From Thermoplasmatota archaeon (GTDB lineage: Archaea; Thermoplasmatota; Penumbrarchaeia; Penumbrarchaeales; Penumbrarchaeaceae), in NCBI GenBank assembly GCA_965234725.1, contig CBDDUX010000058.1, positions 1 to 46,874 on the forward strand: a DNA stretch of 46,874 nt. The letters run 5' to 3'. Positions 16,152-46,874 of this stretch are shown piece after piece. Both the position numbers and the translations under genes were made by a program. Every line of letters starts with the position of its first letter. Within the stretch, counting starts at the first letter, position 1. The notes beneath the pieces were generated by a model. The model saw only the letters and a list, made by a program, of their open reading frames with translations. It made no database searches and was not told where the DNA came from.

Positions 16152-16162
16152 TTTTCATCACC

Positions 16163-22998: not shown

Positions 22999-23360
22999 TC
23001 CACCTCCTCGTAATCATCAACAACTGCTTGTTCGGGTTTCACTCCTGTTCTCCTGGCCGCTCTTGCAATGGCATGAGCTCCAGTCGGGTTTGTTACCAGG
23101 AGAGCAAGGAGGGCTATTATCGACATTCCTATGAGATGCATAAAGGACCCGGAGTTGTCACCGTCGACCTCGGTCAACCTCATGATGGCATAGATAATAA
23201 CAGCCAGGATCAGGAAGATGGAACCGAAGGTCGTCGCCTTGGTGGCCGCATGGAGCCTTGTGTAAACATCCGGGAACCTGTGAAGACCGATCACCCCTAT
23301 CACCATGAAGAACATGGAAATGATCAAGATGATCATCATTGCAATGGTCCAACCATCCAT
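22995..23360 (-). CDS. mbhC: Mrp antiporter subunit G-like (MbhC)
   Basis: RFPDVYTRLHAATKATTFG; TNPTGAHAIARAA. Confidence 0.9.
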   Translation of the reverse strand: MDGWTIAMMIILIISMFFMVIGVIGLHRFPDVYTRLHAATKATTFGSIFLILAVIIYAIMRLTEVDGDNSGSFMHLIGMSIIALLALLVTNPTGAHAIARAARRTGVKPEQAVVDDYEEVE

Positions 23361-23648
23361 TCAGTTCGCCTCCTCGTTCTCTTTTGTCTGTTCCATATAT
23401 CTTGCAATGAACATGGTGGCACCGAAGGACAGCAGGGCATAGACCACTGCAATATCAACAAAGACGACCTCTTCGAAATAGGCCGCAAATGCTACCATCA
23501 GCCCGACCACGATCGTGTTCACCGTGTCAAGCGCCACCACTCTATCGGGAGAGGTAGGGCCGAGAAATAACCTCAGGAGTGCCAGTAGGATACCGAAAGC
23601 CAGTACTGCTATCACTATAAGGAGCAGTTCAGAAGGACCGAACGTCAT
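23361..23648 (-). CDS. mbhB: Mrp antiporter subunit F-like (MbhB)
   Basis: GPTSPDRVVALD; DIAVVYALLSF; ATGA overlap with the mbhA stop. Confidence 0.9.
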   Translation of the reverse strand: MTFGPSELLLIVIAVLAFGILLALLRLFLGPTSPDRVVALDTVNTIVVGLMVAFAAYFEEVVFVDIAVVYALLSFGATMFIARYMEQTKENEEAN

Positions 23649-24163
23649 TCCGCAAGCCTCCTTGCCCATTTGGCGAAATCACCGCAGACAGCTTTTATCC
23701 TCTCATCCATTGTTTTGGTGTCCTTCACCTTGATCCAGTGGATGTACATCTCGTCGCGGTCCTCCCAAAGGTCAACCGTCAGGGTCCCGGGTGTCAATGT
23801 GATCGAGTTAGCCAGTATGGTCTTTCCAAGGTTCGTCTTCAGGCCAGGTTCGATCCTTACTATACCTGGTCTGATCTTTCCCGTTATGACTAATATGGCA
23901 ACCTCGATATTCGCTTTTGTCAGGGCTATGAACCATATGGGAATATAGGCCAGGAACAAAGGGAACCTGAGGAACAGTCTGGTGTTTTGAGCCTTTCCGA
24001 GTATGGCACGTGCAATGGCGGCGGCAATGAGGGAAAGGATAACACCGGCAACCAATTCCTGCCAATGGAATAGATAGCCAAAGTTTCCCCCGTCCCCTGT
24101 GCCCAGGACCATCAATAGGTACAGTACCAATACACCGATGAAGGTCATAAAAAAGGTTAACAT
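23645..24163 (-). CDS. mbhA: Mrp antiporter subunit E-like (MbhA)
   Basis: PGIVRI...LANSITLTPGTLTVD; ATG 24163 follows a GGAGG SD. Confidence 0.9.
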   Translation of the reverse strand: MLTFFMTFIGVLVLYLLMVLGTGDGGNFGYLFHWQELVAGVILSLIAAAIARAILGKAQNTRLFLRFPLFLAYIPIWFIALTKANIEVAILVITGKIRPGIVRIEPGLKTNLGKTILANSITLTPGTLTVDLWEDRDEMYIHWIKVKDTKTMDERIKAVCGDFAKWARRLAE

Positions 24164-24193
24164 GTCATGGCCTCCTAGTCGAGATTCTATATA

Positions 24194-24229
24194 GGAACCA
24201 GGTTCCAAATACGGTTTTACTATTTAAAA
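24194..24229 (-). promoter_or_regulatory. mbh operon promoter: TATA box plus a palindromic candidate operator
   Basis: TTTAAATA on the - strand at 24221-24228; perfect palindrome GGAACC-A-GGTTCC at 24194-24206, near the expected transcription start. Confidence 0.5.
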
Positions 24230-32246: not shown

Positions 32247-34136
32247 ATGAGCAAAAGGGAATGGCTGAACTTCATAGACAGGCTCATCAAGGAGGATGAG
32301 AGTGAGATCGTAGGTGTCAAGGCAAAGGGGTCCAAATTCCAGTTTGCTCCTCTGGATGCTGCGGAAGAATTGAGGCTTGATTACGATGTTACTATCCTCC
32401 CTCCCAAGAAACAGCTCCTCCCTCCCCATGAGGACCTCATGAGCTATGATATATCCAAACCTTTCAATGTCCTGTCTAGTATCGATGACGGAAAGAAGAT
32501 CCTTGTGGGGGTCCACCCCTACGATGTCATTGCGATCCAGCAGATGGACGAGATCTATCTTGGGACCCACCGTGACGAACACTATGACAATAGGAGGAAG
32601 AACACACTCATCATCGCTTCAGACATACTCAATGTACCTGAAAGATCATTTTCAGGAAGCTTGGGTACACATATCGTTGAAACCGGCTTTGACCTGCTTG
32701 TCACCGATCTTGGTGATACAGTAGCTGTCACGATCGGCACCCCGGCTGGAAAGGAACTGCTTGAGAAATATTCTGAACCTAAAGAAGCAAACAGCAGCGA
32801 GGTCACCAGAGTGAAAAGGTTGAGAGAGGAGCTGCCGGATAAATATCAAAGAAAGCTCAAAGTCGATAAATACCAGTGGGAGAAACTTCTTGAGGAGAAT
32901 TACGAACACCCCATATGGGAGGAGAATTCAAAGAAATGCCTTACCTGTGGAAGCTGCACTCTGGTTTGCCCAACCTGTTTTTGCTATGATGTCGAAGATG
33001 TCATGAACATCAATATGAAGCAGGGCAGGAGGGTCAGGACATGGGATGGATGCCTCCTGAGGGATTTCACACTTGTAGCCGGTGGAGAGGTTTTCAGGGA
33101 GGATATAAGGGACAGATACAGACACCGTTACTACAGGAAAGGTCTCTACCTGCCGGTAAGGAACGGTTTCGTGGCATGTGTCGGATGCGGTAGATGTGCC
33201 ACTCAGTGTTTGCCCGACATAGCGGATCCCTGCGAGGTCATCAACACCCTGGCATCTTACTCCATGCATGAAAAGGTGAAATTCCCTATACCCGATGTCA
33301 AACAAGCAGGTATAGAAGAAGGTCTCCTGGTCCCGGAACCTGCTACCATAAAAAGGAAAGAAAAAATGACAGAACTGGAGACCCTGTACGAGATCGAACT
33401 GGATAATGGAGAAACATTGAAACACAAACCAGGACAGTTCGTGGAACTATCCATCTTCGGTATAGGGGAGGCTCCCATCTCCATTTCCTCATCTCCCGGA
33501 GGGAAAAGGTTCGAACTACTGGTTCGGAGAATAGGACACGTCACCACCAAGCTGGAATCCTTGGATATAGGAGAGAAGATCGGAATAAGGGGTCCCTTTG
33601 GCAACGGTTTCGATGTGAAGGAACTTGAAAGAAAGGACATCCTGTTCGTATCCGGAGGATGTGGTCTTGCACCTACAAGATCTTTGATCAATTACGTGAT
33701 GGAACATCGAAACGATTTCGGCAAGGTGACCATACTTTACGGATGTAAGGAACCAAAGGCCATTCTTTTCGATCGGGATCTCAATAGCTGGGGAGATGTG
33801 AAGGATGTGGTGGTGAAAAGGACAGTGGATTCATGCTCGGATGGTGAATGCTGGGATGGAGATGTTGGTCTGATAACAACACTGATCCCACCACTTGATA
33901 TCGATCCCGCCAATACAATTGGCATAGTAGTCGGACCACCTGTGATGTATAAATTCGTCCTGAAGGAACTTAAAGCAAAGGAGATCCCTGATGACAATAT
34001 CATCGTCTCCCTCGAAAGGAGAATGAAATGCGGTGTGGGAAAATGCGGACACTGCCAGATGAACGGGATCTATGTCTGTCTTGAGGGTCCGGTTTTCAAA
34101 TACACCGATGTTAAGGATATACCGGAGGCATTCTAA
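32247..34136 (+). CDS. hydBG: Fused beta (4Fe-4S) + gamma (FAD/NAD(P), 2Fe-2S) subunits of a group 3b soluble hydrogenase
   Basis: N-half CLTCGSCTLVCPTCFC and CVGCGRCATQC; C-half PGQFVEL..GEAPISISS, RGPFGNGF, GGCGLAP, GPPVM, ERRMKCGVGKCGHC...CLEGP, all in one frame. Confidence 0.88.
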   Translation: MSKREWLNFIDRLIKEDESEIVGVKAKGSKFQFAPLDAAEELRLDYDVTILPPKKQLLPPHEDLMSYDISKPFNVLSSIDDGKKILVGVHPYDVIAIQQMDEIYLGTHRDEHYDNRRKNTLIIASDILNVPERSFSGSLGTHIVETGFDLLVTDLGDTVAVTIGTPAGKELLEKYSEPKEANSSEVTRVKRLREELPDKYQRKLKVDKYQWEKLLEENYEHPIWEENSKKCLTCGSCTLVCPTCFCYDVEDVMNINMKQGRRVRTWDGCLLRDFTLVAGGEVFREDIRDRYRHRYYRKGLYLPVRNGFVACVGCGRCATQCLPDIADPCEVINTLASYSMHEKVKFPIPDVKQAGIEEGLLVPEPATIKRKEKMTELETLYEIELDNGETLKHKPGQFVELSIFGIGEAPISISSSPGGKRFELLVRRIGHVTTKLESLDIGEKIGIRGPFGNGFDVKELERKDILFVSGGCGLAPTRSLINYVMEHRNDFGKVTILYGCKEPKAILFDRDLNSWGDVKDVVVKRTVDSCSDGECWDGDVGLITTLIPPLDIDPANTIGIVVGPPVMYKFVLKELKAKEIPDDNIIVSLERRMKCGVGKCGHCQMNGIYVCLEGPVFKYTDVKDIPEAF

Positions 34137-34883
34137 ATGAAACCGAGAGTGGCATTTTTCGATTTCGCAAGCTGTGAAGGCTGCCAACTACAGGTGGTCA
34201 ACCTGGAGGAGAAGATCCTTGATCTGATAGATGTTGTTGAGGTAGTGTCCTTCAGAGAAGCAATGAAAGAGCATTCGGATGAATATGACATAGCCTTCAT
34301 CGAAGGATCAATAATGAGACCAATGGACGAGGAAAGGTTGAAAAAGATCAGAAAGAACGCCAAGATACTCGTTGCCTTAGGGGCTTGCGCTTGCATCGGC
34401 GGAGTGAATAAACTGAGGAATGAATGGTCTGTTGAAAATGTGAAGAAAGAGGTCTATGGCAATGCAGATATCAAGGATAACAAGTTCTTTGATGCATTCC
34501 CTACAAAAGCGGTGGACGAGGTAGTGGAAGTGGACTTCTACATACCAGGTTGTCCCATAAATAAGGTTGAGTTCGCCAAGGTCGTATCCCATCTTGCAAT
34601 AGGGAAGACACCGAGGCTACCCAACTATCCCGTCTGTGTAGAGTGTAAGAAGAACGAGAACATCTGTGTTTTCGAACTTGGAAAATTCTGCCTTGGTCCG
34701 GTTACCAGAGCCGGATGCAATGCCATCTGTCCAACCTTTGGAGACGGATGTGAAGGATGCCGTGGATATCTTGATAATCCAAAGATGCAGCAGCAGAAGG
34801 ATATTTTAAGAAAATACGGGGTCAAATTCGATGACATGATGAAGCGTTTTAACATGTTCAACTATAAGAAGGGGGTGTTTTGA
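34137..34883 (+). CDS. hydD: Group 3b hydrogenase small (delta) subunit
   Basis: SCEGCQ, IEGS, GACA, PGCP, PVCVEC, CLGPVTRAGCNAICP, CEGCRG. Confidence 0.92.
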   Translation: MKPRVAFFDFASCEGCQLQVVNLEEKILDLIDVVEVVSFREAMKEHSDEYDIAFIEGSIMRPMDEERLKKIRKNAKILVALGACACIGGVNKLRNEWSVENVKKEVYGNADIKDNKFFDAFPTKAVDEVVEVDFYIPGCPINKVEFAKVVSHLAIGKTPRLPNYPVCVECKKNENICVFELGKFCLGPVTRAGCNAICPTFGDGCEGCRGYLDNPKMQQQKDILRKYGVKFDDMMKRFNMFNYKKGVF

Positions 34884-36179
34884 ATGGCACAGGACCTGAA
34901 TGTTGAAGTTAAACATCTGACCAGAGTTGAAGGTCATGGAAATATCTATCTGAATGCAAAGTCCGGACATGTTGAAAATGTACTTTGGGAAGTCGATGAG
35001 GCCCCACGGTTTTTTGAAGCAATGGTGAGGGGGAAGAGCTACAGCCAGCTCTCTCACATCACATCAAGGATCTGCGGCATTTGCTCGATCGGCCATTCAC
35101 TAGCATCTTTGAAGGCCACAGAATCTGCAATGGGAGTCAAGATATCCAAGCAAACGGAAATGTTGAGAAGATTGGCATTACATGGCGAGAACCTTCAGAG
35201 CCACTCTCTTCATGTAGGGTATCTAGTTGCACCGGATCTGCTAGGGGTAGGATCGGTGATCCCTCTTGTTAAAACTGCAAAGGATGCAGTAGTAAAGATC
35301 GTGACCCTTCATAGGCTGGCTAATTATCTTTCGGACATCACTTGTGGAAGGACAACTCATCCGATCTCATTGGATGTTGGAGGATTCACCCATATCCCTT
35401 CCGAAAAGGAGTTGCTAGGTGTAAGGGACCAGCTTGAAGAAGCTATGAAGGTAACTGCAGATGTTGCCGGAGTCGTTCTTGCAAATGCAGACAAACTTCC
35501 TGATTTTGTCAGAGAAACCGAGTTCATAGGTCTGACCAATGACGACCATTATGCAATGTATGATGGTTTGATAGCATCCACTGATGGAGGAAAATGGCCT
35601 GCAGAAGATTACCTCTCCATCACCAACGAATACGTTGTTGGTCAATCAACTGCAAAATATGCAAAACACAACAGGGATTCTTATTTTGTTGGAGCACTTG
35701 CAAGGTTCAATCTGAACTATGACAAACTGACACCTGAGGCGAAGGATGTTGCCAAGATGTTCGGTTTGAAACCGGTCTGTCACAATCCCTTCATGAACAG
35801 TATTGCCCAGACCGTTGAGATCATGGATTCCCTGGTTGATTCCATCCATTTGATCGATGAATTGATCGATAATGGACTTCATGAAGAAGAATACAAAGTC
35901 GAGGTCCAGGCAGGCAGGGGTATTGGAGCTGTTGAGGTCCCCCGTGGTATCCTATTCCATGATTATACCATCAATAAACTGGGTAATTGTGTGAAGGCCA
36001 ATTGTATCATTCCAACGAACCAGAACCATGGAAATATCCAAAAGGATATGGAGGCCCTTGCTCCAAAGATAATTGAAAAACCGCATAAGGAAGTGGAATT
36101 GACACTTGAAATGCTTGTAAGGGCCTATGACCCATGTATTTCATGTTCAACCCATTATCTCGATGTCAGGTTCGTTTGA
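34884..36179 (+). CDS. hydA: Group 3b [NiFe] hydrogenase large (alpha) subunit
   Basis: TRVEGHG, SRICGICS, EVPRGILFH, DPCISCSTH plus a short cleavable tail. Confidence 0.94.
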   Translation: MAQDLNVEVKHLTRVEGHGNIYLNAKSGHVENVLWEVDEAPRFFEAMVRGKSYSQLSHITSRICGICSIGHSLASLKATESAMGVKISKQTEMLRRLALHGENLQSHSLHVGYLVAPDLLGVGSVIPLVKTAKDAVVKIVTLHRLANYLSDITCGRTTHPISLDVGGFTHIPSEKELLGVRDQLEEAMKVTADVAGVVLANADKLPDFVRETEFIGLTNDDHYAMYDGLIASTDGGKWPAEDYLSITNEYVVGQSTAKYAKHNRDSYFVGALARFNLNYDKLTPEAKDVAKMFGLKPVCHNPFMNSIAQTVEIMDSLVDSIHLIDELIDNGLHEEEYKVEVQAGRGIGAVEVPRGILFHDYTINKLGNCVKANCIIPTNQNHGNIQKDMEALAPKIIEKPHKEVELTLEMLVRAYDPCISCSTHYLDVRFV

Positions 36180-36192
36180 AACATATGATATC

Positions 36193-36224
36193 TGGCCTCC
36201 TTCTCCGGAGGCCAATTTCTTCTT
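36193..36224 (+). terminator. Hairpin after hydA
   Basis: TGGCCTCC-TTCTCC-GGAGGCCA (8-bp stem) followed by a pyrimidine-rich tract. Confidence 0.5.
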
Positions 36225-36256
36225 TCTCCAAATCAATATATAACGGGGGATTCTCT

Positions 36257-36727
36257 ATGAGATCAATGGATAGAACCGCGGTCATTGGTGTTGGGAATGA
36301 TCTCATGGGAGATGATGCCATTGGTCCTCACATCGTGAGGGAACTCATCAAAAGAAAGGTCCTCCCGGAAGAGGTCCTTCTCATTGATGAGGGGAGAGGA
36401 GGAATGAGACTGGTCCACCATATCAAGGATATAGACCGGGTAATCATCATCGATGCTGCAGATATTGGGAAGGACCCGGGGGAGTATGTTGTGTTCAGAC
36501 CAGAAGAGGTGGAATCGATCAAGGACCTCTCCGGTACGAATATCCATGAATGGGACCTCCTTAAGATGCTGGAATTGTCAAAGATGCTTGGAGAATGCCC
36601 TGAGGAGGTCCTGATCCTTGCGATCCAGCCAAAAGACCTGAAGTTGGGAGAGGAGATCTCTACCGAGTTATTGGAAAGAGTAGGGGAGTACATTAAGGAA
36701 GTATTGGAGCTTCTTAAGGATACTTGA
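36257..36727 (+). CDS. Hydrogenase maturation protease (HyaD/HybD family)
   Basis: VIGVGNDLMGDDAIG, IIDAA, NIHE, IQP; start at ATG 36257 or 36266, after a TATA-like AATATATAA. Confidence 0.88.
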   Translation: MRSMDRTAVIGVGNDLMGDDAIGPHIVRELIKRKVLPEEVLLIDEGRGGMRLVHHIKDIDRVIIIDAADIGKDPGEYVVFRPEEVESIKDLSGTNIHEWDLLKMLELSKMLGECPEEVLILAIQPKDLKLGEEISTELLERVGEYIKEVLELLKDT

Positions 36728-36785
36728 TCGAATATCTTGCAGATAGAGAATTATAAATAAGTTCAAATCCAATCTACAATGGGGT

Positions 36786-38114
36786 TTGAATTTGAATCAG
36801 AAGAGAGTAATTGGTCTCATTTTAATAAAATGGAATATCATTATATCCGTAATTCTTTCAATAATATCATCCATTTTTGTAATCCTATACCTAACCCTCG
36901 ATTACGAACAAATATTCAATTTGATCAAATGGGATAGGATCAGAATCGTGTTCCACTACATTGTCTACTTGATATCCATCATTCTTCTAGGTACAGGTAT
37001 TTACCTGATGATGAATAACAGCATATCAGAAAAACATAAAAAAGACCTGAAACTTGCATTCATTTTCTTCTGGATCGTAGTTACAGTATTCGTGGTCGAG
37101 ACCATCTTCAATTTCCTTGTAAGACCAAAGGATACCGTTGATTATTACAGAATATTAATAATCAGGGATATTGTATTCAGACCCATCAATATTGTCACTT
37201 TATTCCTTTCTCTGATGACATTGGTTATTCCTGTCTGGAGACTTTCTACGAAAAGGTCCAGGGACCTTTTATTCATCTGTTTCTTTCTGTTTGTGATTAG
37301 CTATCCAGTCCAGTTTCTTATTTATTTTGCATTTCTGCTTACGATATTTTCAATCCCGATATTGTATATAACTCTTGTAGTTATACTGCTTCCGACAGTG
37401 ATTTCATTGGTCGCAAAAATCATCATGATATTTGTATATTCAAAAATTATAAAGAAAGAGAGAGTAGAGGAAGATATTGAAGAGGCACCAATAATAAATG
37501 GAAATCTGTTCTTCAGAGAGAGGTTCCCTACCATTATCAGGAAACCAGTTCCAGCTATCATAGTTTTCTTCATGGTGGGATTAATAATTGGATCGGTAAT
37601 GGGCCTCAGGACCTACAGTATCAATTCTGATGTCTTTGATAATAACACAAATGATGAATGGTCACTATTGGTAGAGAGGGAGCAAAATTCAGAGGTCAGA
37701 TCGATTTCAGGTATGGTCACTGAATCCGATGATGATGTGCATATGATGGAAGTGGGAAAAAAAGTGATTTCAATTATTGTAGAATTAAGCTGGGAAGATG
37801 AGGCTGCTCCCAGAATGACGAGAAATCAACCGGATGTTTTCACTCTCACGACATCTTTCAGTGAGGATATGGAATTCAATAAAGAGCAGAAGATGGGAGC
37901 AAACCCTGAAAACGGGATAGGATCGTTGGATATAAATTATGAATATGATCCGGATATCGGTCAATATTATAGTGAATTCTTCGTATCGATTGAATTGACG
38001 GAAGCTGGTGATGTGTTGGGCCCTGCAGGTTTTATTGTGAGATCCCAGGATACAAGGAATGAATACGATCTGAGAATCGAGGTGACCTTCATCGAGGAAA
38101 TCTTTGAAACTTGA
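36786..38114 (+). CDS. Polytopic membrane protein with an acidic C-terminal extracellular domain
   Basis: About seven hydrophobic segments followed by a beta-rich acidic domain (VELSWEDE...NQPDVFTL); TTG start. Confidence 0.7.
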   Translation: MNLNQKRVIGLILIKWNIIISVILSIISSIFVILYLTLDYEQIFNLIKWDRIRIVFHYIVYLISIILLGTGIYLMMNNSISEKHKKDLKLAFIFFWIVVTVFVVETIFNFLVRPKDTVDYYRILIIRDIVFRPINIVTLFLSLMTLVIPVWRLSTKRSRDLLFICFFLFVISYPVQFLIYFAFLLTIFSIPILYITLVVILLPTVISLVAKIIMIFVYSKIIKKERVEEDIEEAPIINGNLFFRERFPTIIRKPVPAIIVFFMVGLIIGSVMGLRTYSINSDVFDNNTNDEWSLLVEREQNSEVRSISGMVTESDDDVHMMEVGKKVISIIVELSWEDEAAPRMTRNQPDVFTLTTSFSEDMEFNKEQKMGANPENGIGSLDINYEYDPDIGQYYSEFFVSIELTEAGDVLGPAGFIVRSQDTRNEYDLRIEVTFIEEIFET

Positions 38115-38187
38115 TTTGTAAGAACCGTATGATTAAAATAATACCCCTGATTACTCCTATTGCCTCGCATCAGAGGGTGAATTCTAC

Positions 38188-38261
38188 GGGCCAGTAGCTT
38201 AGCCTGGTGGAGCACCCGGCTCATAACCGGGTGGTCGTCGGTTCGAATCCGGCCTGGCCCA
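38188..38261 (+). tRNA. tRNA with CAU anticodon, most likely tRNA-Ile2 (agmatidine type)
   Basis: Acceptor GGGCCAG/CTGGCCC, anticodon arm CCCGG-CTCATAA-CCGGG (CAT 38222-38224), TTCGAAT loop, A73, no encoded CCA. The GGGC start fits archaeal Ile2 rather than initiator Met (A1-U72) or elongator Met. T-runs follow downstream. Confidence 0.9.
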
Positions 38262-38379
38262 TTCTTATTTAGGTTCAAGTCACTTTTTTTTGAAAATTTT
38301 AATTTAATTTTTTTTTGGGGGTGATCCATAGCAGCTTACAGTGATCATGAAATAGTGTTTTCATATCTAAATAGATTTC

Positions 38380-38753
38380 ATCAGAACGCTTTGTTAAGCG
38401 TTTATTCGGATTATCGACCTTTACCTTGGAGGGATCGAAATCTTTGAGATTATTATTCCCTACCCATTCAAGGAATTCCTTGTCGTTTTCATTCCTCTGT
38501 CCATTCCTAAGGATCCTGATGATATCGCTATATTCCCAAGGACCTCCGCAATCTTACGGGGGACAAGCTCTTTTTCCATCGATGTAAATGGGATATTTAA
38601 AGAACCATCATTGGTATTTATACCTCTTAAAAGGATTCTATGTTTCCAGCCGTCCCTAAAATCGCAAAAGTAACTAGATTTCTTACTATTCATGGTAAAG
38701 TGATCTGAGATTTTAAGTTCATACCCTGGTAGAACAACCATTCCGATTGTCAA
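38380..38753 (-). pseudogene. Degraded plasmid pRiA4b ORF-3 family gene
   Basis: YFCDFRDGWKHRILL in one frame; after a frameshift, KYPIYIDGKRACPP*DCGGPWEY...EFLEWVG...DFDPSKV. Matches the family motifs YDFGDxWxH and CPPEDCGG, with E changed to a stop. Boundaries approximate. Confidence 0.72.
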
Positions 38754-38905
38754 GTCATCCTTTCTTGGGATAATCTTGAGAGGTTAATAACCTTTTGTAT
38801 GAAGATTGGTATGTGAACCGGTCAACAAGTCGCTTTGGTGTGGATCAAATTGACCTCATATCCAAGTGCCTTCAACCTGTTCACAGCATTTCATTTTGAA
38901 TTTTC

Positions 38906-39973
38906 GGTGGTGTCCTAAAATAGGTACCTTATTGTATATCTAAATCCATTACCTATACGGTGATGGGATGGCGTGTCCAAGAGGAGTAATCGAGGTCACG
39001 TGTACAAATCCTAAGTGCAGATATTTCGACAAGGAGACTGGAAAGAACATCATTAAGAAAGGTAAGAATCCAGCTGGGCACCAAAGATACTTCTGCCTTT
39101 GGTGTAACACCTATTTCGTCGAGACATCTGGCACTCCATATTTCTATAAGCATTTGTCAGAAAAGGAAATAGACCAGATCTGTAGACTCCTTGTCGAGAA
39201 GAATGGAATCAGAAGTATCGAACGCATTACTGGACATCATCGAGACACCATCGGTAGGCTGATGGAAGATATAGCCGAACATGCAAAGATGATAACTGAA
39301 CACCTTGTTCATGATCTTGGTCTAACCCCATTGGAATGTGATGAACTTTGGTCTACAGTTAAAAAAAACAGAAAAAGGTTAAGCGTGAAAGCCCAAATCG
39401 AGCTGAAGAAGGTGATGCCTGGATCTATACCTGCATAAAACGACACACCTATTTTTTCGTGGCTTTTTCTGTTGGCAAATGGACCCAGAAGACCTGTACC
39501 TCATTGATTGATCATGTTTTCGACCGTATGGAGCTTCCGTTTCCGGACAGCGTAATTGATTTCTTTACAGATGGGAACGATGATTATACCTATGTTCTCC
39601 CGAAATATTATGCCAAGACCTGCATGAATTATGGACAGTTGGTTAAGATCAGAGAGAGGGGAACATTGATTGGCAAGGACAGGCGAACCATTTTTAGTGA
39701 GGTTGAACAAAGAGATATTGAAACAACAGATGTAGAGAATTTCAATGGGATCCTACGTGAGAGGAATGGCAGGCTTGTGAGGAAAAGAAAATGTTTCTCG
39801 AAGGAGAAGTGTGAGCTTGAGAACCATCTTCATCTGTTCCAGTTCTATTTGAATTTCATGAACAACTTCAGAATAAACACTTCTCCAGCAATGCTGGAAG
39901 GTTTAACAACCCATGTCTGGACTTGGAAGGATTTTTTTACTTTAGGAAAAGTGCCATAAGTTAGGACACTATC
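38906..39973 (+). mobile_element. IS1-family insertion sequence
   Basis: Imperfect terminal inverted repeats GGTGGTGTCCTAA (38906) and reverse-complement GATAGTGTCCTAA (ending 39973) enclose an InsA/InsB-type ORF pair; no exact target duplication seen. Confidence 0.85.
38968..39959 (+). CDS. IS1-family transposase produced by a -1 frameshift joining ORFs 38968-39438 and 39459-39959
   Basis: Zn ribbon (CTNPKC...QRYFCLWC), HTH (GIRSIERITGHHRDTI), ECDELW, then A8C at 39361-39369. The -1 frame reads KKQKK...GDAWIYTCIKRHTYFFVAFSVGKW...FTDG...VENFNGILRERNGRLVRK. Confidence 0.85.
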
Positions 39974-40234
39974 GTATTTTGAGCAACTACGTTGACAAAT
40001 ATCGAGATAAATCACTCAGCAACCGATGGTAAAAACCCATTTGTCAAATTGGATTTCGGCATTTCGAATCGGGCTGATCAGTGTTGGGGAAAGCTATTTG
40101 GGGAGGTTAGGTATATGTGAGGAAAATGGCGTTTGTTCGAGATCACTAAGAATCAGAGAACGATACTCGAATCGCTTGAGATCAACTTATCCTTGAACCC
40201 CTACACCTCGTTACTATTTTTCCGGGAGTTTAAG
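39974..40234 (+). pseudogene. Possible 3' remnant of a DDE transposase with an IS end
   Basis: One frame reads GKWRLFEITKNQRTILESLEI, resembling the C-terminus of IS1634/IS4-type transposases, followed by CCGGGAGTTTAAG (IS-end-like); stops upstream. Confidence 0.35.
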
Positions 40235-40294
40235 ATGCTTAGAAGGAAGTTTTAATCCGCCTTGCAGGCTTGAGATAAAATGTTAAACCAATAT

Positions 40295-41479
40295 TTAAAA
40301 ATCGTTAATAATATGCATCAAAATATCAATAAAATTGTCAATTTCCTCCTTACTATTATATATTTGAAATGATAGTGAAATAATGTTATCAAAATTATAT
40401 TTTAAAAACCAAGGTTGAGAACACATCATCCCTGTTCTAACGTAAAAATTTCCAACATTCTCTGCAATCATTCCAATATCATGAGAATTAATGTTTTTTA
40501 TTGAAAAATTACATAGATATTGGCCTATATTATTTTCATCCAATCCATGATAAGTTATCCCTTCAATATGACTTATTTGATCCTTAAAATATTTACATAA
40601 CATTAAAATGTAGGAGTCAATATTATCCATGCCAATTTTTTCAAGGTATTCAAGAATTATTTGAACGCAACTAATGCTAGGTAGATTGTAGGTACCGATT
40701 TCAAATTTTTCTGGAACTCTTATGATTTTATAATCATTAAATGAAATGGGAGATATATTACCTTCACCATAAAATAATACTGGAAAAGATTCTAATAATT
40801 CTTCCTTCCCGTATAGGATTCCTATTCCGCTTGGACCACACATATTGTCAAGTGTAAATGTTAAGAAGTCAATATCAAGTTTTTTAACATCTATTTGTGA
40901 GTAAGGAGCCATTAATTGGGCATCTACTAAGACATATGAATTATTATCATGTGCTATTTCAATTATCTCTTTAAGTGGATATTCAGAACCATCAATAAAA
41001 GAAGGTGAAGTTAAACTTACCAATTTAATATCATTCTTTATTAACTTTTTGTACATCATAAAATTGAACCCATATTTTTTATCAGAATCAATTGGATAAT
41101 GTCGAATTTGACCATTGCATTTCCAAGGATAGAAATTTGAATTTCTTTCTTTATCTGTTGTTAAAACAGATACAGGTTTGCTTCTTTTTATTATATTCGA
41201 CACCATATTGATTGCATTTGAAGAATTATTAACAAAAATTATTTCATTTGAAGAATTGCAATTAATAAAATTTCTTACTTTTTTTCTTGAACCTTTAATA
41301 ATCTCATCTTGATTGGATGAAATTGTGTGAACACTCTTTGTTCCACTTGGAATGCAATAGATTTCTCGAATTTTATCTATAACTATATTAGGTTTAAATG
41401 AACTAATTGTATTATCAAACCAAGTGATTTCACTAGATAGAGAATAGCTGAAATCAGATTTAATAATGTTATTAATAAT
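40295..41479 (-). CDS. SufS/class V aminotransferase paralogue lacking the PLP-binding Lys (probable pseudoenzyme); predicted ATT start
   Basis: The frame is open for 92 codons upstream of the ORF-track ATG, back to the TAG at 41483-41485, and aligns with the neighbouring SufS N-terminus (IKSDF...WFDNTISSFKP...SRKKVRNFINC...EIIFVNNSSNAIN). TFTLDNMCGP replaces TFSIHKMVGP; RTGMMC keeps the Cys. Confidence 0.8.
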   Translation of the reverse strand: MINNIIKSDFSYSLSSEITWFDNTISSFKPNIVIDKIREIYCIPSGTKSVHTISSNQDEIIKGSRKKVRNFINCNSSNEIIFVNNSSNAINMVSNIIKRSKPVSVLTTDKERNSNFYPWKCNGQIRHYPIDSDKKYGFNFMMYKKLIKNDIKLVSLTSPSFIDGSEYPLKEIIEIAHDNNSYVLVDAQLMAPYSQIDVKKLDIDFLTFTLDNMCGPSGIGILYGKEELLESFPVLFYGEGNISPISFNDYKIIRVPEKFEIGTYNLPSISCVQIILEYLEKIGMDNIDSYILMLCKYFKDQISHIEGITYHGLDENNIGQYLCNFSIKNINSHDIGMIAENVGNFYVRTGMMCSQPWFLKYNFDNIISLSFQIYNSKEEIDNFIDILMHIINDF

Positions 41480-41482
41480 TGT

Positions 41483-41743
41483 CTATCCCTCCTTTCTTAA
41501 TGATTGAATTTTCCACTTAATAATACCGAAAGGGCTACTTGGTGTTATTTCTAACAAATACTCCTTCTTTACCATTGCTCTAATAATAATTGGGACATTG
41601 CACCCTGTAAAAAGCTCAAAATATTTAGTATTCTCTGATTTCATTTCATCTAAATTGGAAGTGATATCATTCAAGGATGCAATACCTTTTATCCTTACAA
41701 TATCATATATTAATTTTTCTTTTTCATTCATATATTCCCTCAT
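41483..41743 (-). CDS. Small hypothetical protein, winged-helix-like, with a single Cys (FTGCN)
   Basis: ATGA overlap with the sufS stop; 86 aa; helix pattern EKLIYDIVR..GIASLNDI...IIRAMVKKEYL. Confidence 0.65.
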   Translation of the reverse strand: MREYMNEKEKLIYDIVRIKGIASLNDITSNLDEMKSENTKYFELFTGCNVPIIIRAMVKKEYLLEITPSSPFGIIKWKIQSLRKEG

Positions 41744-43023
41744 GTCCAATTGGAGTCTTCACTAATAATTTTATTAATAACATCTATAAATAAATCTATT
41801 TCTTCAAAGGTATTATATATATATAAAGAAGCACGAGCTGATCCGACTTTACCAATCCCCTGGGCATTGAACCAACTATGCACACAGTGATCCCCTGATC
41901 TGATCATAATATTTGAGGTATTATCCAATATTCTAGCTATTTCACTAGGTGGTATTTCCGTTATATTTCTCTTGATTTTAAAACTTACAATTCCAGCCCT
42001 ATCTTTTGGATTTTTCGGACCCAATATCGTCACTTCTGGAATTCTCAATAACTTTTCAGACATGTATTTATTAAGTTCATACTCATAATTATGAATATTA
42101 TCCATACCAATATTCATTAAATACTCCGCAGCAGCTCCAGCTCCAATTTGACCAGCGTAGTTTCTTAAACCGGCTTCAAATTTATATGGCGCATCCTGCC
42201 AAACAACATTGTTATAAAAAGAATTTTCAACGGTATCACCCCCTACAATAAACGGTGATAAACCTGCTATTTCCTCTTTTTTGCAATAAAGAACCCCCAT
42301 ACCACTAGGCCCTACCATTTTATGTATAGAAAAAGTGAAGAAGTCCACATCAAGATCAATCACATCTATTTTCTGATGAGGGGCACTTTGTGCTCCGTCA
42401 ATTAAAACCTTTATATTATTATCATGAGCAATATTTACGATCTCCTTTACAGGTATCGACCTGCCATCAAGATTTGAAGTATGTACCATACTTATCAATT
42501 TTACCTTCTTAGTTATTTTCTCTTGATAAGTGTCTATATCAAATAATTGTTCTTCATTGCTCTCTACTATTCTTACTTTGATCTTATTTCTAAGGTTCTC
42601 TTGATTTACTCTATGTAACCATGGTATTAGATTTGAATTATGTTCATGATCAGTTATTAAAACCTCATCTCCTTCGGAAAATGGGTAACTGTTTGCAATT
42701 AAATTTATACCCTCCGTAGTATTTCTTGTCCAAATAATCTCCTTGATTTCCTCTTCATCATATAAACTTGGATTTCTAGCATTGATAAATGATCGAATTT
42801 TATCTCTGGCATCATATGTTGCTTCTTGAACTCTCTTTGCAAACCAATGTGCACTCCTTCCATGCCCTCCACAGGCAGGAAATTCATTGTAATAGGAATT
42901 CATTTTGTTTATTACAAATGAAGGTTTCAAAGTCATACAAGCGTTGTCCATATATATGGGACATTTACCATTTCTCTCTTGATTTAAACATGGGAAATCA
43001 TCCCTGATTCTATTTACATCCAT
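41740..43023 (-). CDS. sufS: Cysteine desulfurase, SufS/group II type
   Basis: YMDNA, RNTTEGIN, EHNSNLIPW, DGAQ, SIHKMVGPSGMG (PLP Lys), FEAG, IRSGDHC (catalytic Cys), RASLYIYN; GGAG SD. Confidence 0.92.
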   Translation of the reverse strand: MDVNRIRDDFPCLNQERNGKCPIYMDNACMTLKPSFVINKMNSYYNEFPACGGHGRSAHWFAKRVQEATYDARDKIRSFINARNPSLYDEEEIKEIIWTRNTTEGINLIANSYPFSEGDEVLITDHEHNSNLIPWLHRVNQENLRNKIKVRIVESNEEQLFDIDTYQEKITKKVKLISMVHTSNLDGRSIPVKEIVNIAHDNNIKVLIDGAQSAPHQKIDVIDLDVDFFTFSIHKMVGPSGMGVLYCKKEEIAGLSPFIVGGDTVENSFYNNVVWQDAPYKFEAGLRNYAGQIGAGAAAEYLMNIGMDNIHNYEYELNKYMSEKLLRIPEVTILGPKNPKDRAGIVSFKIKRNITEIPPSEIARILDNTSNIMIRSGDHCVHSWFNAQGIGKVGSARASLYIYNTFEEIDLFIDVINKIISEDSNWT

Positions 43024-43073
43024 AGTCTCCCCATGATGAACTCCTCTACTAGAATATATAATTATTCAAATGG

Positions 43074-43250
43074 CAGTAGTTCACTAAGTTTCATATCATG
43101 ATCTGGTACACTGGCCCACCGGTACCTTTATATAAAAGGTGGGCGTCCCCCCATGCCCACCAAAGCAAAGGGGGGACAATCCCACAAGAACGAGTATGTA
43201 CTGAAAGCTCATGAATGTTTTGATTCGGTTGTTTCGAACCTGACAAAACA
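43074..43250 (+). mobile_element. Truncated left end of a related ISH3-like element
   Basis: CAGTAGTTCAC end, GTACACTGGCC...CGGTACCTTTATATA and ATGCC, all paralleling 43251-43333; a short frameshifted transposase start (...HECFDS vs ...NECFAP). Confidence 0.7.
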
Positions 43251-44576
43251 CAGTAGTTCACCAGTTTTTACATAGTTGATTTGTACACTGGCCTATCGGT
43301 ACCTTTATATATGAGGGGACGCTACCCTATGCCTTCCAAAACAAAACGGCATAGGCCCCAGGGAACACTGAAACGTTTTGGTCCTAATGAATGCTTTGCT
43401 CCTGCTATGAATGCACTTGAGAAATTTATCCCGATCAAAACTCAAGGGAAATGGAACCAGAAAGATATTCATACATCATCGATCGGAATGACGTCGGAAA
43501 GAATGTCCATTCATTCCATACAACCTGTGATCAAGGATTGTCCAACAGAAACACCATTTCGCAACCACTTATCTAAGCTCAACATGGAATATCTCAAAAG
43601 AATCAATCAAGAATTGCTTACCAACAAAATTATCGAAGAAATCTTCAGACATAAACCAGTCAAGATTGCAATTGATGAAACAGATGACACATATTATGGA
43701 GAGATTACATCGATAAACAATGAAAATGTGGTGAAATATAAAGTAAAGAAATCAACCAAGTTCTTCTACATATACATCACTCTATATCTGATACTGGGTG
43801 ACTGGAAACTGACACTCAGTATCTTGCCAGTCAAAAAGAAAACAACCATACTGGCATACATCAAGCAAATGTTGAAAAAGGTTGAAAATCTCGATTTCTC
43901 CATAGAAGTTCTACTTTTGGACAGGGGATTCTATGGATCTGAACTGTTCAGATACCTCATGCAGGAAGAGATACCGGATATTGCGCCCGTGAAAGTTCAC
44001 AGCGAGGATATGAACCAATTGCTCAAGGGACGCAAATCAAGATATGCCAAGTACACCATGAGTAAAACCACAAACCCACTTGAACTCGATGTGGCTATAT
44101 GTGTGAAGTATCTGAATGGAAGATATGACAAACATGAGAACAGAAATTATGGATACTTCGTATATGGAATAGACTGGAAACCTAACAAGGTCACTTCTGT
44201 CTACAGTAAAAGATTCGGCATAGAATCATCATATCGAATGAGGAACATTGTCAAACCGAGAACAAATACCAAGAATCCTGTTATCATGTATTATTTTGCG
44301 CTAGTATCATTGTTGTTGAAGAACATCTGGGTATCGCTTCGATATCGTTCATTTCCTCAAATACGAAGAGGTCCAAGAATCGTGGATGAGGATAAGTTCA
44401 GGTTCGACCAATTCAGATTGATGTTATGGTATGCATTTTGTAGACTGTTCGGTTTTGAACGACTAATACCCATTCATAGGTCCAAGGGATCGCATGTGAT
44501 GATTATGATGCTTGCATACGAAAATCGTTCATATAAAGGAGAAAAATGGTGAAGTACTGAAAATGGTGAAGTACTG
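43251..44576 (+). mobile_element. ISH3-family (IS4-like) insertion sequence with a tandemly duplicated right end
   Basis: Left IR CAGTAGTTCACCAGTTT (43251-43267); right IR AAAATGGTGAAGTACTG present twice (44543-44559, 44560-44576), matching the left IR at 15/17. Confidence 0.85.
43329..44552 (+). CDS. ISH3-family DDE transposase
   Basis: IAIDET, LLLDRGFY, YSKRFGIESSYR, LLKNIW; ATG 43329 lies downstream of the TATA box CTTTATATA. Confidence 0.88.
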   Translation: MPSKTKRHRPQGTLKRFGPNECFAPAMNALEKFIPIKTQGKWNQKDIHTSSIGMTSERMSIHSIQPVIKDCPTETPFRNHLSKLNMEYLKRINQELLTNKIIEEIFRHKPVKIAIDETDDTYYGEITSINNENVVKYKVKKSTKFFYIYITLYLILGDWKLTLSILPVKKKTTILAYIKQMLKKVENLDFSIEVLLLDRGFYGSELFRYLMQEEIPDIAPVKVHSEDMNQLLKGRKSRYAKYTMSKTTNPLELDVAICVKYLNGRYDKHENRNYGYFVYGIDWKPNKVTSVYSKRFGIESSYRMRNIVKPRTNTKNPVIMYYFALVSLLLKNIWVSLRYRSFPQIRRGPRIVDEDKFRFDQFRLMLWYAFCRLFGFERLIPIHRSKGSHVMIMMLAYENRSYKGEKW

Positions 44577-44635
44577 ATAAAAAGTAAATACTAAAAAAGA
44601 AATCGCAAACTTACCGACACATTGGAGGAAGGAGA

Positions 44636-46015
44636 ATGGATCCGGATAAATTGTTTTTAGAGCAGGTAAAGGAATCTACAGGATGTACTGAAATTGTTGC
44701 AATTGCGCTAGTTACATCATTAGCAAAAAATTCATTGCTCGGAAGGATTCCTCCTTTCTTACCACATGAAGGACAAAATGAAGTGGGTGGGATAGATGAG
44801 TTTGATGTAAATAACATAGAAGAAATTTATATTGAATGTGATCGTAATGTTTTTAAAAATGCAAAATCTGTTGGAATACCAATGGACAATGGGAAGGGAA
44901 AAGGCATTAAACTAGCTGCTACTATTGGACTATTTTGCAATTTGGAGGATTTAGATAAAAATGTTAGTATTTTACAAATTTTCGAGACAGTGAATGAACC
45001 AGATATTGAAAAAGCAAAACAATTAAATAAGAAAATAAAAATAAAAATCTCAGTAAAAGATGAATATAAGTCCCATTCTAACATTGATATATTTTGTAGG
45101 ATTGCTTATACCACTCCATCATTCTTCGGAGTTGCTAGGATTACAGGTGAACATAGCTATGTTAACGAGATAGCAAATAAAAATGGTATATTATTTTCAC
45201 GCCCTAAAAAAGAGCTCACACCAAATGAAAATAAAAGGAATTATTTCCAGTCTTTGACACTAAATAAAATCATATCATTATCTGAAAATCTTTCAGAAGA
45301 TGTTAAAAAAAGAATTGAAACCGGAATTATGATGAATAATAAACTTGTTGAAGAAGGATTAAATAATCCTTGGGGAATGGAAATTGGAAGAAAACTTAAT
45401 TCGATGATTAAAAATGGTAAATTGAAGGAAGATGTAATTTCTGTAACAAAAATGAATGCGTCAGCTGCAGCGGATGCAAGAATGGGGGGGAAAAAATTAC
45501 CAGCAATGGGATCCGCAGGATCTGGCAATCAAGGAATTACTGCTTCAATCCCAATAATAACTGTAGCAAAATGGTATGGTATTACTGATCAAGATCTTAT
45601 CAATAAATCACTTGCCATTTCCCATTGGGTGACTTCATGGATTACTGGCCATTCGGCAGAATTATCAGCTATGTGTGGATGCACAGTGAAAGCCGGGATT
45701 GGAGCTACTGCGGGAATTACATACCTCCTTGGAGGGAAAGAAGAAGATATTATGAGCTCGATTAACTTAATGGCTGCAAATATCACGGGAATCATTTGTG
45801 ATGGTGCAAAGGAAGGTTGCTCTTTAAAAATAGCAAATGCATCTGGCGTGGCTGTTGAATCTGCATTGTATTCTCTTGAGGGCATTCGTGTTCCATCTGA
45901 TAATGGTATTATCTCTTTTTCCAAAACGGGTACAATAGAAAATGTTGGAAAGATATGCCTTAACATGGTGGATGTAGATAAAGTGTTAGTGGAAGATATT
46001 ATGAAGATGGATTAA
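44636..46015 (+). CDS. cyuA: L-cysteine desulfidase (CyuA/YhaM, serine dehydratase-alpha-like Fe-S enzyme)
   Basis: GCTE, NVFKNAKSVGIP, AADARMGG, GSGNQGITAS, LSAMCGC, GIICDGAKEGCSLK; GGAG SD. Confidence 0.88.
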   Translation: MDPDKLFLEQVKESTGCTEIVAIALVTSLAKNSLLGRIPPFLPHEGQNEVGGIDEFDVNNIEEIYIECDRNVFKNAKSVGIPMDNGKGKGIKLAATIGLFCNLEDLDKNVSILQIFETVNEPDIEKAKQLNKKIKIKISVKDEYKSHSNIDIFCRIAYTTPSFFGVARITGEHSYVNEIANKNGILFSRPKKELTPNENKRNYFQSLTLNKIISLSENLSEDVKKRIETGIMMNNKLVEEGLNNPWGMEIGRKLNSMIKNGKLKEDVISVTKMNASAAADARMGGKKLPAMGSAGSGNQGITASIPIITVAKWYGITDQDLINKSLAISHWVTSWITGHSAELSAMCGCTVKAGIGATAGITYLLGGKEEDIMSSINLMAANITGIICDGAKEGCSLKIANASGVAVESALYSLEGIRVPSDNGIISFSKTGTIENVGKICLNMVDVDKVLVEDIMKMD

Positions 46016-46027
46016 ATAAGTGATTGA

Positions 46028-46648
46028 ATGAAAAAGTTAAAAATACTTATCGCTGCGGGCCCTACTCGAGAATATATTGATCCCATTAGGTATATTCAAA
46101 ACAGTTCATCAGGAAGAACAGGTATTGAAATTGCCAAGGAATCAAAAAAACTTGGACATTATGTGAAATTATTATATGGACCCGGTAGTGAAAAAGTCCC
46201 TGAAGATATTGATTGGATCACATATATATCCACTAATGACCTTCTAAACTTAGTATTAAATGAAATAAAATACTATGATGTATTCATTTGTGCTTCAGCT
46301 ATCGCAGATTATTCTCCAATTAAAGTAGAAAAGAAAATAAAATCTTCAAATAGAAATATCCACTTAGAACTAAAACCTAATAAAAAAATAATAAATGAAG
46401 TAAAGAAAATTGCACGAAATGGCACACTTATCGTTTCCTTCAAACTTGAAGTAGGAATTACTGAAAGTGAACTAATTGATATAGCAAAAAAATCTTTGAG
46501 TGATATTGTTGTTGCAAATGATTTTTGTAAGATGGATTCAAATTTCCATCCAGCAATTATAATTTCTAATAATAAATTAATAAGAGTAAATAACAATCAA
46601 GAATTAGCAAGAGAACTTCTCGCTACTATAGAAGCAATAAAAAGGTGA
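46028..46648 (+). CDS. coaB: Stand-alone phosphopantothenate--cysteine ligase (CoaB) domain protein
   Basis: GPTREYIDPIRYIQNSSSGRTG, AIADY, LKPNKKII, SFKLE, VVAND; no N-terminal CoaC flavoprotein domain. Confidence 0.85.
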   Translation: MKKLKILIAAGPTREYIDPIRYIQNSSSGRTGIEIAKESKKLGHYVKLLYGPGSEKVPEDIDWITYISTNDLLNLVLNEIKYYDVFICASAIADYSPIKVEKKIKSSNRNIHLELKPNKKIINEVKKIARNGTLIVSFKLEVGITESELIDIAKKSLSDIVVANDFCKMDSNFHPAIIISNNKLIRVNNNQELARELLATIEAIKR

Positions 46649-46709
46649 GAAATACAAGTAATGATAAAATTAATATAAAACAAGGATATCCATCCAATAG
46701 TTCATCTCG

Positions 46710-46785
46710 GGAGAGGTGGCGGAGCCTGGTTTCGCGTCCGACTGCAGATCGGTTAACATGGGTTCAAATCCCATCCTCTCCTCCA
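46710..46785 (+). tRNA. tRNA-Cys(GCA) with encoded CCA
   Basis: Acceptor GGAGAGG/CCTCTCC, D stem GCGG/TCGC, anticodon arm TCCGA-CTGCAGA-TCGGT (GCA 46744-46746), T arm ATGGG-TTCAAAT-CCCAT, U73, CCA at 46783-46785; AT-rich TATA-like tract ~30 nt upstream. Confidence 0.92.
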
Positions 46786-46874
46786 TTTCTTTTATTATTA
46801 CAATGACGACATTCGAATAGGGTGCAATCCCATTTATTAGGTAATTTTTCATAGCATCCAGAATGATAGTACCA

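Follow-up and report, generated by a model that had tools for sequence, protein, structure and literature searches.

Why should genes for a cysteine desulfurase, a cysteine desulfidase, the cysteine-ligating enzyme of coenzyme A (CoA) synthesis and a tRNA for cysteine lie side by side at one end of a stretch of archaeal DNA? The stretch, here called the window, is positions 1 to 46,874 of contig CBDDUX010000058.1 of a Thermoplasmatota archaeon, and its last 6.6 kb, from position 40295 to the window end, form this island of cysteine genes. We put at about even the chances that the block came horizontally from an AT-rich, DPANN-like archaeon and lets cysteine serve as a sulfur source. Because the clustering is real but was not found elsewhere, the island looks like an acquired cysteine-as-sulfur-source cassette rather than a new pathway. 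The genes named in a preliminary description of this DNA (sufS, a SufS paralogue, a small cysteine-containing protein, cyuA, coaB and tRNA-Cys) were all recovered, at or near the positions it had given. On the minus strand the order is sufS, small protein, SufS paralogue, and on the plus strand cyuA, coaB, tRNA-Cys:

40295-41479, minus strand: SufS paralogue, 394 codons (Pfam, NCBIfam, structural model)
41483-41731 (other starts 41743, 41749), minus strand: small one-cysteine protein, 82 aa (no family; winged-helix model)
41740-43023, minus strand: SufS-type cysteine desulfurase, 427 aa (Aminotran_5 349 bits, TIGR01979 400 bits, motifs)
43024-43073, no strand: left half of the original intergenic region, 50 nt (read off the sequence)
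43074-44576, plus strand: ISH3-type insertion (NF033541 216 bits; terminal repeats)
44577-44635, no strand: right half of the original intergenic region, 59 nt (read off the sequence)
44636-46015, plus strand: CyuA-type [4Fe-4S] L-cysteine desulfidase homologue, 459 aa (SDH_alpha 160 bits; aligns to 9fsl)
46028-46648, plus strand: stand-alone CoaB (phosphopantothenate--cysteine ligase domain), 206 aa (PF04127 147 bits)
46710-46785, plus strand: tRNA-Cys(GCA) (ARAGORN; Rfam RF00005 58.7 bits)

The island stands apart from the rest of the window in base composition and codon usage. Its genes have a GC content of 0.26-0.34 and a GC content at third codon positions (GC3) of 0.17-0.29, against 0.43-0.52 and 0.44-0.64, respectively, in the 29 genes upstream, so that the earlier statement that all island genes are more AT-rich than those of the host holds; the step at 40295 is sharp, from about 0.40 to 0.24-0.30. 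Relative synonymous codon usage (RSCU) is correlated among the genes for the paralogue, SufS, CyuA and CoaB (0.65-0.77), as it is between one half of the host genes and the other (0.97), whereas the correlation between island and host genes is only -0.13 to 0.18. Taken together, the contrasts in GC and RSCU make the four island genes one compositional unit, foreign to the rest of the window. Spacing within this unit is tight: the stop codon of sufS overlaps the upstream ATG of the small open reading frame (ORF) in the sequence ATGA, 12 nt separate cyuA from coaB, and 61 nt separate coaB from the tRNA-Cys gene, a closeness that suggests operons. Insertion sequence (IS) elements and tRNA genes both flank the island and occur within it. 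A plasmid or phage origin of the block was considered and rejected: blastn with the 6.6-kb block had no match in phages and only one otherwise, of 180 nt, in a bacterial gene for a desulfurase.

A foreign unit of this kind could also be an artefact, an assembly or binning chimera in which the AT-rich block derives from a separate, DPANN-like small-genome organism living with the host, the gene order being native there. Several features fit such an origin: GC falls abruptly at 40295, the codon usage of the island is unrelated to that of the host, IS copies adjoin and interrupt the block, and the block is terminal on its contig, which has at most 47158 bases and therefore holds almost no sequence past the window end. 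The named relatives of the island proteins fit as well, being mostly from lineages of the DPANN or candidate phyla radiation (CPR) type: Aenigmarchaeota, Nanohaloarchaeota, Nanopusillus and Thermoplasmata for the SufS family including the paralogue, Patescibacteria, Aenigmarchaeota, Promethearchaeota and Thermoplasmatota for CyuA, and Altiarchaeota for CoaB. We nevertheless hold a chimera to be unlikely, while taking it seriously. The switch in composition does not fall within a repeat but about 320 nt outside the end of an IS1-type element (39974), these 320 nt being non-coding DNA of 40% GC, and the block is preceded by a zone of intermediate GC (0.31-0.43, 36.7-40.3 kb) that holds a membrane protein gene without Pfam domains, a tRNA-Met gene and the IS1 copy. 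Moreover, ISH3-type elements entered the block twice, and the same proteins occur on two contigs, although these are possibly not independent assemblies.

The three enzymes of the island can be assigned from family matches and motifs. SufS matches PF00266 (Aminotran_5) over the entire profile with 349 bits; its score against TIGR01979, 400.3 bits, lies under the cut-off of 475.1, which makes it a divergent member of the family. It retains the lysine that binds pyridoxal 5'-phosphate (PLP; motif HK), the DGAQ motif and the loop of the catalytic cysteine (GDHC), all in register with 119 relatives. Identity to its best database relatives is 50-56%, and in the tree it groups with two proteins (P0050 and P0073) with support of 99/97.

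The product of 44636-46015 is, by sequence, a member of the CyuA family, with predicted desulfidase activity. It matches PF03313 (SDH_alpha) with 160 bits and the Methanococcus maripaludis CyuA (MmCyuA; 9fsl) with 100 bits, the motifs GCTE, SGNxGI, MCGC and CDGAKxGC being aligned; Cys17, 347, 349, 388, 395 and Lys398 are invariant in an alignment of 36 CyuA sequences (A1). Excerpts of the published work on this enzyme name the ligands of the cluster and the catalytic residues, and all of these are among the motifs kept in the island protein (PMC12647591). Identity to the best database relatives is 41-44%. According to the same excerpts, M. maripaludis can, thanks to CyuA, grow slowly when cysteine is its only source of sulfur, and is protected against cysteine; the enzyme is patchily distributed in archaea, has spread by gene transfer, and occurs mostly in genomes that also have cysteine desulfurases (PMC12647591). 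It is with this physiology that one of three functions proposed in the preliminary description, cysteine scavenging or detoxification, agrees.

CoaB matches PF04127 (DFP C-terminal) with 147 bits and aligns with PDB entry 5int over residues 5-202 (78 bits), and in this alignment the sequences NxSSG and ADY, which we take to be the CoaB motifs, are visible. Its match to TIGR00521 (CoaBC) covers only positions 184-391 of the model (132.7 bits, cut-off 219.7), and the N-terminal flavoprotein domain (CoaC) is missing. Excerpts of PMC6650551 describe the characterised archaeal CoaBC enzymes as bifunctional, for which reason a gene for CoaB only is unusual for a large archaeon; it is yet normal among its nearest relatives, two proteins (P0243, P0244) of 210-218 aa and 49% identity that stand alone too, followed by relatives at 37-43% identity that include stand-alone Altiarchaeota proteins of 214-215 aa. 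Downstream, the tRNA-Cys gene has a complete cloverleaf, a GCA anticodon, U73 and an encoded CCA end (found by ARAGORN; RF00005 58.7 bits, threshold 29). Its GC content is 0.58, as compared with 0.66 for tRNA-Met, and the DNA beyond it is still AT-rich. Nothing supports calling it a 'dedicated' tRNA-Cys, as had been done. Apart from these two tRNAs, Rfam at E<=0.1 over 36000-46874 returned nothing. It had been noted before that the functions gathered here are those of cysteine users, and this stands: the enzymes all consume cysteine, the catalytic residues appear intact in SufS, CyuA and CoaB, and the three look functional.

Between the two divergent units lies an ISH3-type insertion with a transposase ORF at 43281-44552 on the plus strand, whose score against NF033541 (216 bits) is just below the cut-off of 225. 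Two left ends (43074 and 43251) and two right ends (44559 and 44576) can be recognised. An 11-nt terminal repeat has four of its five matches in the window at these ends, with 0.47 expected in the whole window; the 73 nt at 43067-43139 match 43244-43316 at 74% identity, and at 44543-44576 a unit of 17 nt occurs twice in tandem. These doubled ends and repeats point to a complete element inside, or beside, the remnant of a related copy, of which 177 nt remain at 43074-43250. Inspection of the sequence revealed no clear target duplication. Without 43074-44576, the start codons of sufS and cyuA are 109 nt apart (50 + 59), as compared with the roughly 110 bp that had been given for the distance between the units once the IS is removed. 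The left half of this original intergenic region holds an AT-rich, TATA-like stretch, and GGGGAG ahead of the ATG of sufS, and the right half has GGAGG ahead of the ATG of cyuA. A scan for promoter and terminator consensus sequences gave no enrichment (32 against 36.1 expected, and 3 against 3.7), the model being bacterial and thus poorly suited to archaeal DNA. Both units may be under common control, as their divergent layout and tight spacing and the presence of a winged-helix gene suggest.

That gene, the small ORF at 41483-41749 on the minus strand (TAG stop at 41485-41483), encodes a protein without any Pfam or NCBIfam family and without a match to SufE, SufU or TusA. HMMER searches over 1.84 billion representatives returned seven matches: the protein itself, two relatives of 76-80 aa (P0299 and P0300, 35-37% identity) and four polyubiquitins. 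The latter (P0296-P0298 and P0301; Pfam ubiquitin) were dropped as repeat-inflated, each scoring only through five to eight weak repeats. In the three true members of the family a G-C-N triplet around the sole cysteine (Cys44) is invariant. The protein is predicted to be a winged helix: the structural model has a mean predicted local distance difference test score (pLDDT) of 88.2 and an H-b-H-H-b-b winged-helix topology, with the cysteine just before the third main helix; matches to PDB folds are weak (E 0.011-0.08, TMq 0.48-0.68) and all winged-helix (AspA, DsrD, MecI, Fur), and the lead from the Atlas is an HTH_5/WHD cluster with a score of 0.90. Its TAG stop is in frame with the startless frame of the paralogue, so that a read-through product would be a winged-helix-SufS-like fusion of about 477 aa. 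No such fusion to a SufS-like domain was seen in any of the seven matches. TAG terminates three of the 38 tabulated genes, two host genes among them; TAG as a pyrrolysine or read-through codon was set aside, with no evidence of recoding and with TAG serving as an ordinary stop in these genes. A tblastn search with the small protein found no match in plasmids or phages.

The third gene of this unit had been described as a PLP-less paralogue of SufS, and this was confirmed: its HK motif reads DN, the PLP lysine being replaced by asparagine and the preceding histidine by aspartate. Further changes at the active site are H112 to R, N161 to F, Q189 to L, H193 to Y and R48 to K. With the lysine and other residues of the PLP site lost, among them the histidine that stacks on the cofactor, the paralogue is by its sequence not a working desulfurase. 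The database gene call (P0002) has 303 aa from an ATG at 41206, and Aminotran_5 matches the corresponding ORF (40295-41206) with 189 bits at profile positions 90-371 only. This call is truncated, because the frame is already open and SufS-like from 41479, the 92 codons upstream of 41206 being SufS-like as well, while the first ATG, GTG or TTG comes at 41206; at 41479 there is an in-frame ATT, 7 nt downstream of GGAGGG. BLASTP aligned the paralogue from residue 21 with the neighbouring SufS at 33% identity over 400 columns (E 2e-65); identity to other database proteins is at most 36%. A complete type II cysteine-desulfurase (SufS) fold is predicted by the full-length model (pLDDT 86.6, predicted TM-score 0.89), which superimposes on the SufS structures of Bacillus subtilis and Escherichia coli with TM-scores of 0.93-0.95 over about 400 columns and matches B. 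subtilis SufS 5zsk with a TMq of 0.95 and a root-mean-square deviation of 1.8 over 406 columns.

In 39 SufS relatives, 58 alignment columns show conservation of 95% or more; the paralogue agrees with 39 of these columns and departs from 19. Its losses cluster at PLP and catalytic positions, whereas the glycines and prolines that define the fold are retained, as is the Cys loop with the persulfide-forming Cys353 (RTGMMCSQP), which aligns with the invariant cysteine of the family. Only one other protein among the 119 relatives lacks the PLP lysine (P0021, 403 aa, on a contig of 1834 bases; K to R); seven of its nine losses recur in the paralogue, the His-to-Arg change among them, and its catalytic cysteine is intact. 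The placement of the paralogue in the tree lacks resolution: the approximately unbiased (AU) test speaks against a sister relationship to the neighbouring SufS without rejecting it (difference in log-likelihood 16.2, p-AU 0.075), and a clade of the paralogue and P0021 is not rejected either (p-AU 0.35), which does not demonstrate such a clade. The two proteins may represent a recurrent class of pseudo-desulfurases. The literature matches listed include no publication on a PLP-less SufS paralogue, which is no proof of absence.

These unusual features of the paralogue could also be signs of decay. On this account the block would be acquired but unused passenger DNA, the paralogue a nascent pseudogene, the promoter region broken by the IS, and the cysteine theme a matter of the donor operon. 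The absence of an ATG, GTG or TTG start from the 92 SufS-like codons, the 19 of 58 conserved columns that are lost, and a tree branch that measures 3.27 substitutions per site where the median is 0.35, together with a skewed composition, would all be expected of a decaying gene, and the double IS insertion in the control region and the lack of close relatives fit as well. Yet a stop-free frame of 395 codons would arise by chance with a probability of 1.8e-14 at the base composition of the island, which indicates that it was held open by selection at least until recently. Nor do the losses in the paralogue look random, being concentrated at PLP and catalytic sites in the same pattern as in P0021, with fold residues and the Cys loop kept; GGAGGG stands 7 nt ahead of the in-frame ATT; and SufS, CyuA and CoaB retain all catalytic motifs that were checked. 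Decay of the whole block therefore seems to us distinctly improbable.

If the cluster were an established system, its genes should also be found together elsewhere, and the preliminary description had called for a check of conserved neighbourhoods. We ran this check from the side of CyuA. A genome scan with the 36-sequence alignment found 600 matched stretches, of which 591 code for relatives. The 80 best loci and their flanks (up to 10 kb) were searched by tblastn at E<=1e-5 and at E<=1 and with ARAGORN for tRNAs. At E<=1e-5, none of them has SufS, the paralogue, the small protein or CoaB beside CyuA; the relaxed threshold of E<=1 gave one match in all 80, at chance level, and the family profile of the small protein had no match in them. 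Four tRNA genes were found in these loci, none of them for cysteine. As viewed from CyuA, then, the cluster is no recurrent system, and having SufS and CoaB next to cyuA is far from background expectation. Among the literature matches listed there is no publication on a sufS-cyuA-coaB cluster, which is not proof of absence.

Seven of the closest CyuA loci, chosen by hand (six archaeal ones and the best Patescibacteria locus), were inspected together with 38 hand-picked ORFs of their 76 listed flanking ORFs. Winged helix-turn-helix (wHTH) regulators (L002, L041), a beta-eliminating lyase, permeases and unrelated genes were seen there. In the Patescibacteria locus (L002, 9028-13119) the CyuA relative is flanked by a wHTH regulator of the TrmB type and a beta-eliminating lyase of 527 aa, an amino-acid-degrading setting of another kind.

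The proposal that the block is an acquired cassette for the use of cysteine sulfur has to be weighed against a number of results. None of the 80 CyuA loci has the partner genes or a tRNA-Cys, and the genes inspected around seven of the closest relatives are of other kinds. The 80 loci are only 30-53% identical in the best matching segment, from which it follows that the true donor lineage is not among the loci sampled, and the best relatives of the island proteins reach only 36-56% identity. No integrase domain was found in the window by Pfam or NCBIfam, and no cysteine transporter lies in it. The IS insertion may have uncoupled the two units. To these must be added the startless codons and the long branch of the paralogue, which could be those of a decaying gene. 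Integration at the tRNA-Met gene was examined as a route of entry and rejected, there being no second copy of its 22-nt 3' end in the window at up to three mismatches. The claim of a horizontally acquired module thus stands in part: foreign composition and codon usage (RSCU) and the setting of IS elements and tRNA genes speak for acquisition, whereas the claim of a dedicated new system found no support in the 80 CyuA loci.

Such a system, a dedicated pathway for a sulfur metabolite or for an analogue of CoA or pantetheine, had been the first function proposed. CoaB-like, CyuA-like, SufS, pseudo-SufS and small proteins would together form a sulfur relay, possibly drawing on Cys-tRNA. Four adjacent cysteine-handling functions, although these genes accompany CyuA in none of the 80 loci, a CoaB without its CoaC partner, and the unusual nature of the paralogue and the G-C-N protein would fit it. 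The cluster, however, is not conserved, CoaB and CyuA carry the motifs of ordinary enzymes, a stand-alone CoaB of this size is ordinary in the nearest relatives, and a search of the window for further genes (tailoring enzyme, CysRS/SepCysS paralogue, transporter, integrase) came back empty, no export or tRNA-dependent enzyme being present either. With no positive evidence for it, we consider a dedicated pathway very unlikely. The second proposal, that the genes are back-up copies giving tolerance to a cysteine analogue such as selenocysteine, likewise lacks positive evidence and strikes us as extremely unlikely: enzymes of the SufS family do double as selenocysteine lyases, the island SufS has a weak match to NF040779 (152 bits, cut-off 525), and the genes might duplicate functions of the host, but the window holds no selenium or resistance-type genes.

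Returning to an acquired cassette, we infer as follows its donor lineage, how its genes are co-regulated, what the small protein and the paralogue do, and which physiological purpose it serves. The segment from 40295 to the window end would have come by horizontal transfer, as a single piece of the AT-rich genome of a DPANN-like archaeon; that DPANN archaea and their hosts exchange genes is a published theme (excerpts of PMC7414124 and PMC8407114), and the names of the island proteins' relatives, mostly of the DPANN or CPR type, fit such a donor. The piece would have settled in a plastic region of the host, where tRNA-Met and the IS1 copy are followed by the block, and would later have been struck twice by ISH3-type elements. 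CyuA would convert cysteine to sulfide, pyruvate and ammonia, SufS would turn cysteine sulfur into an enzyme-bound persulfide for Fe-S clusters and thio-cofactors, and CoaB would bring cysteine into the CoA pathway; the tRNA-Cys gene would have moved along with the cysteine genes. Both units would be transcribed divergently from the shared 109-bp control region, of which the winged-helix small protein is the most likely regulator. The paralogue would be a pseudoenzyme acting together with SufS: it would either form a heterodimer with it or accept persulfide on the cysteine that it has kept.

A bolder reading, to which we give little credence, takes the trio of sufS, G-C-N protein and PLP-less SufS for an undescribed sulfur-relay or cysteine-sensing module. 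In it the pseudo-desulfurase would pair with SufS or accept persulfide on Cys353, and the small protein would carry or sense persulfide on its only cysteine and set the transcription of a mobile cyuA-coaB-tRNA-Cys cassette that moves between small-genome archaea and hosts; translation of the paralogue might start at ATT, or else proceed through the TAG and so give a MocR-like fusion.

Every enzyme of the island is of a known family, and what is new are variants, namely the arrangement, the PLP-less copy of SufS and the G-C-N winged-helix protein. With known CyuA systems the island shares the family of its desulfidase, whose cluster cysteines and GCTE motif align with those of 9fsl, and a wHTH regulator adjoins cyuA in two of the seven inspected relatives (L002 and L041); in E. 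coli, the cyuPA operon is accompanied by the regulator CyuR. It differs in that the island CyuA is about 60 residues longer than MmCyuA, that no transporter gene lies beside the island cyuA, and that coaB and tRNA-Cys lie downstream, which is the case in none of the 80 relatives. As in SufS-SufE, SufS-SufU and CsdA-CsdE, the gene for a type II desulfurase precedes, within one operon, that for a small protein in which a single cysteine is conserved, although here the small protein is a predicted winged helix, a PLP-less SufS comes as third gene, and no sufBCD genes are in the window. A winged-helix unit followed in frame, over a single TAG, by an aminotransferase-fold domain that looks noncatalytic recalls the MocR/GabR regulators; MocR, however, has a fold-type I domain of class I/II that retains PLP, whereas the island domain belongs to class V, has lost the PLP lysine and is encoded by an ORF of its own. 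With archaeal CoaBC the homology extends to the CoaB half, the CoaC half being absent from the island. Finally, the island resembles tRNA-side genomic islands in that its GC and codon usage deviate, that it has IS elements and that tRNA genes flank it, but the window contains neither an integrase nor a direct repeat of the tRNA end, and its right border lies past the window end.

The remainder of the window is that of an anaerobic archaeon. In the zone next to the block, a gene between the hydrogenase genes and tRNA-Met (36786-38114, plus strand, GC 0.36) encodes the Pfam-less protein of 442 aa, with many hydrophobic segments and an acidic C-terminal domain and with weak Atlas matches (at most 0.79). 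Just past tRNA-Met, a 97-aa ORF (38460-38753, minus strand) has a weak match to pRiA4b ORF-3-like proteins (E 2e-4, below cut-off) and may be a remnant of a mobile element. The IS1-type element spans 38905-39974, with 14-nt inverted ends and ORFs at 38968-39438 (zinc ribbon, HTH) and 39459-39959. Farther away, 15699-24208 on the minus strand holds a membrane-bound hydrogenase set of the Mrp/Mbh type, whose large subunit matches Pyrococcus furiosus MbhL with 342 bits, and 32247-36727 on the plus strand a sulfhydrogenase-like cluster, whose first gene (629 aa) is a fusion of Fer4_22, NAD-binding and DHODB Fe-S domains; the small and large NiFe subunits and a maturation protease are encoded after it. 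There is a second maturation protease at 10406-10963 and, at 10973-15547 on the minus strand, a gene for a 1524-aa protein with GH97, Ig, cadherin and He_PIG domains, whose GC of 0.43 is below that of its neighbours and whose codon usage lies between those of host and island. LonB, an archaeal CCA-adding enzyme and ValRS are also encoded in the host part.

Even if the block were a chimera, it would still show a grouping of cysteine-consuming genes in a reduced archaeon. If it truly belongs to this genome, a multi-gene cassette for sulfur metabolism would have passed from an AT-rich, DPANN-like lineage to a larger archaeon, and imported cysteine could supply the recipient with sulfide, persulfide and the sulfur of CoA. 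The PLP-less SufS, of which a second example with the same seven losses is now at hand, and the G-C-N protein could add an accessory pair to the biology of cysteine desulfurases.

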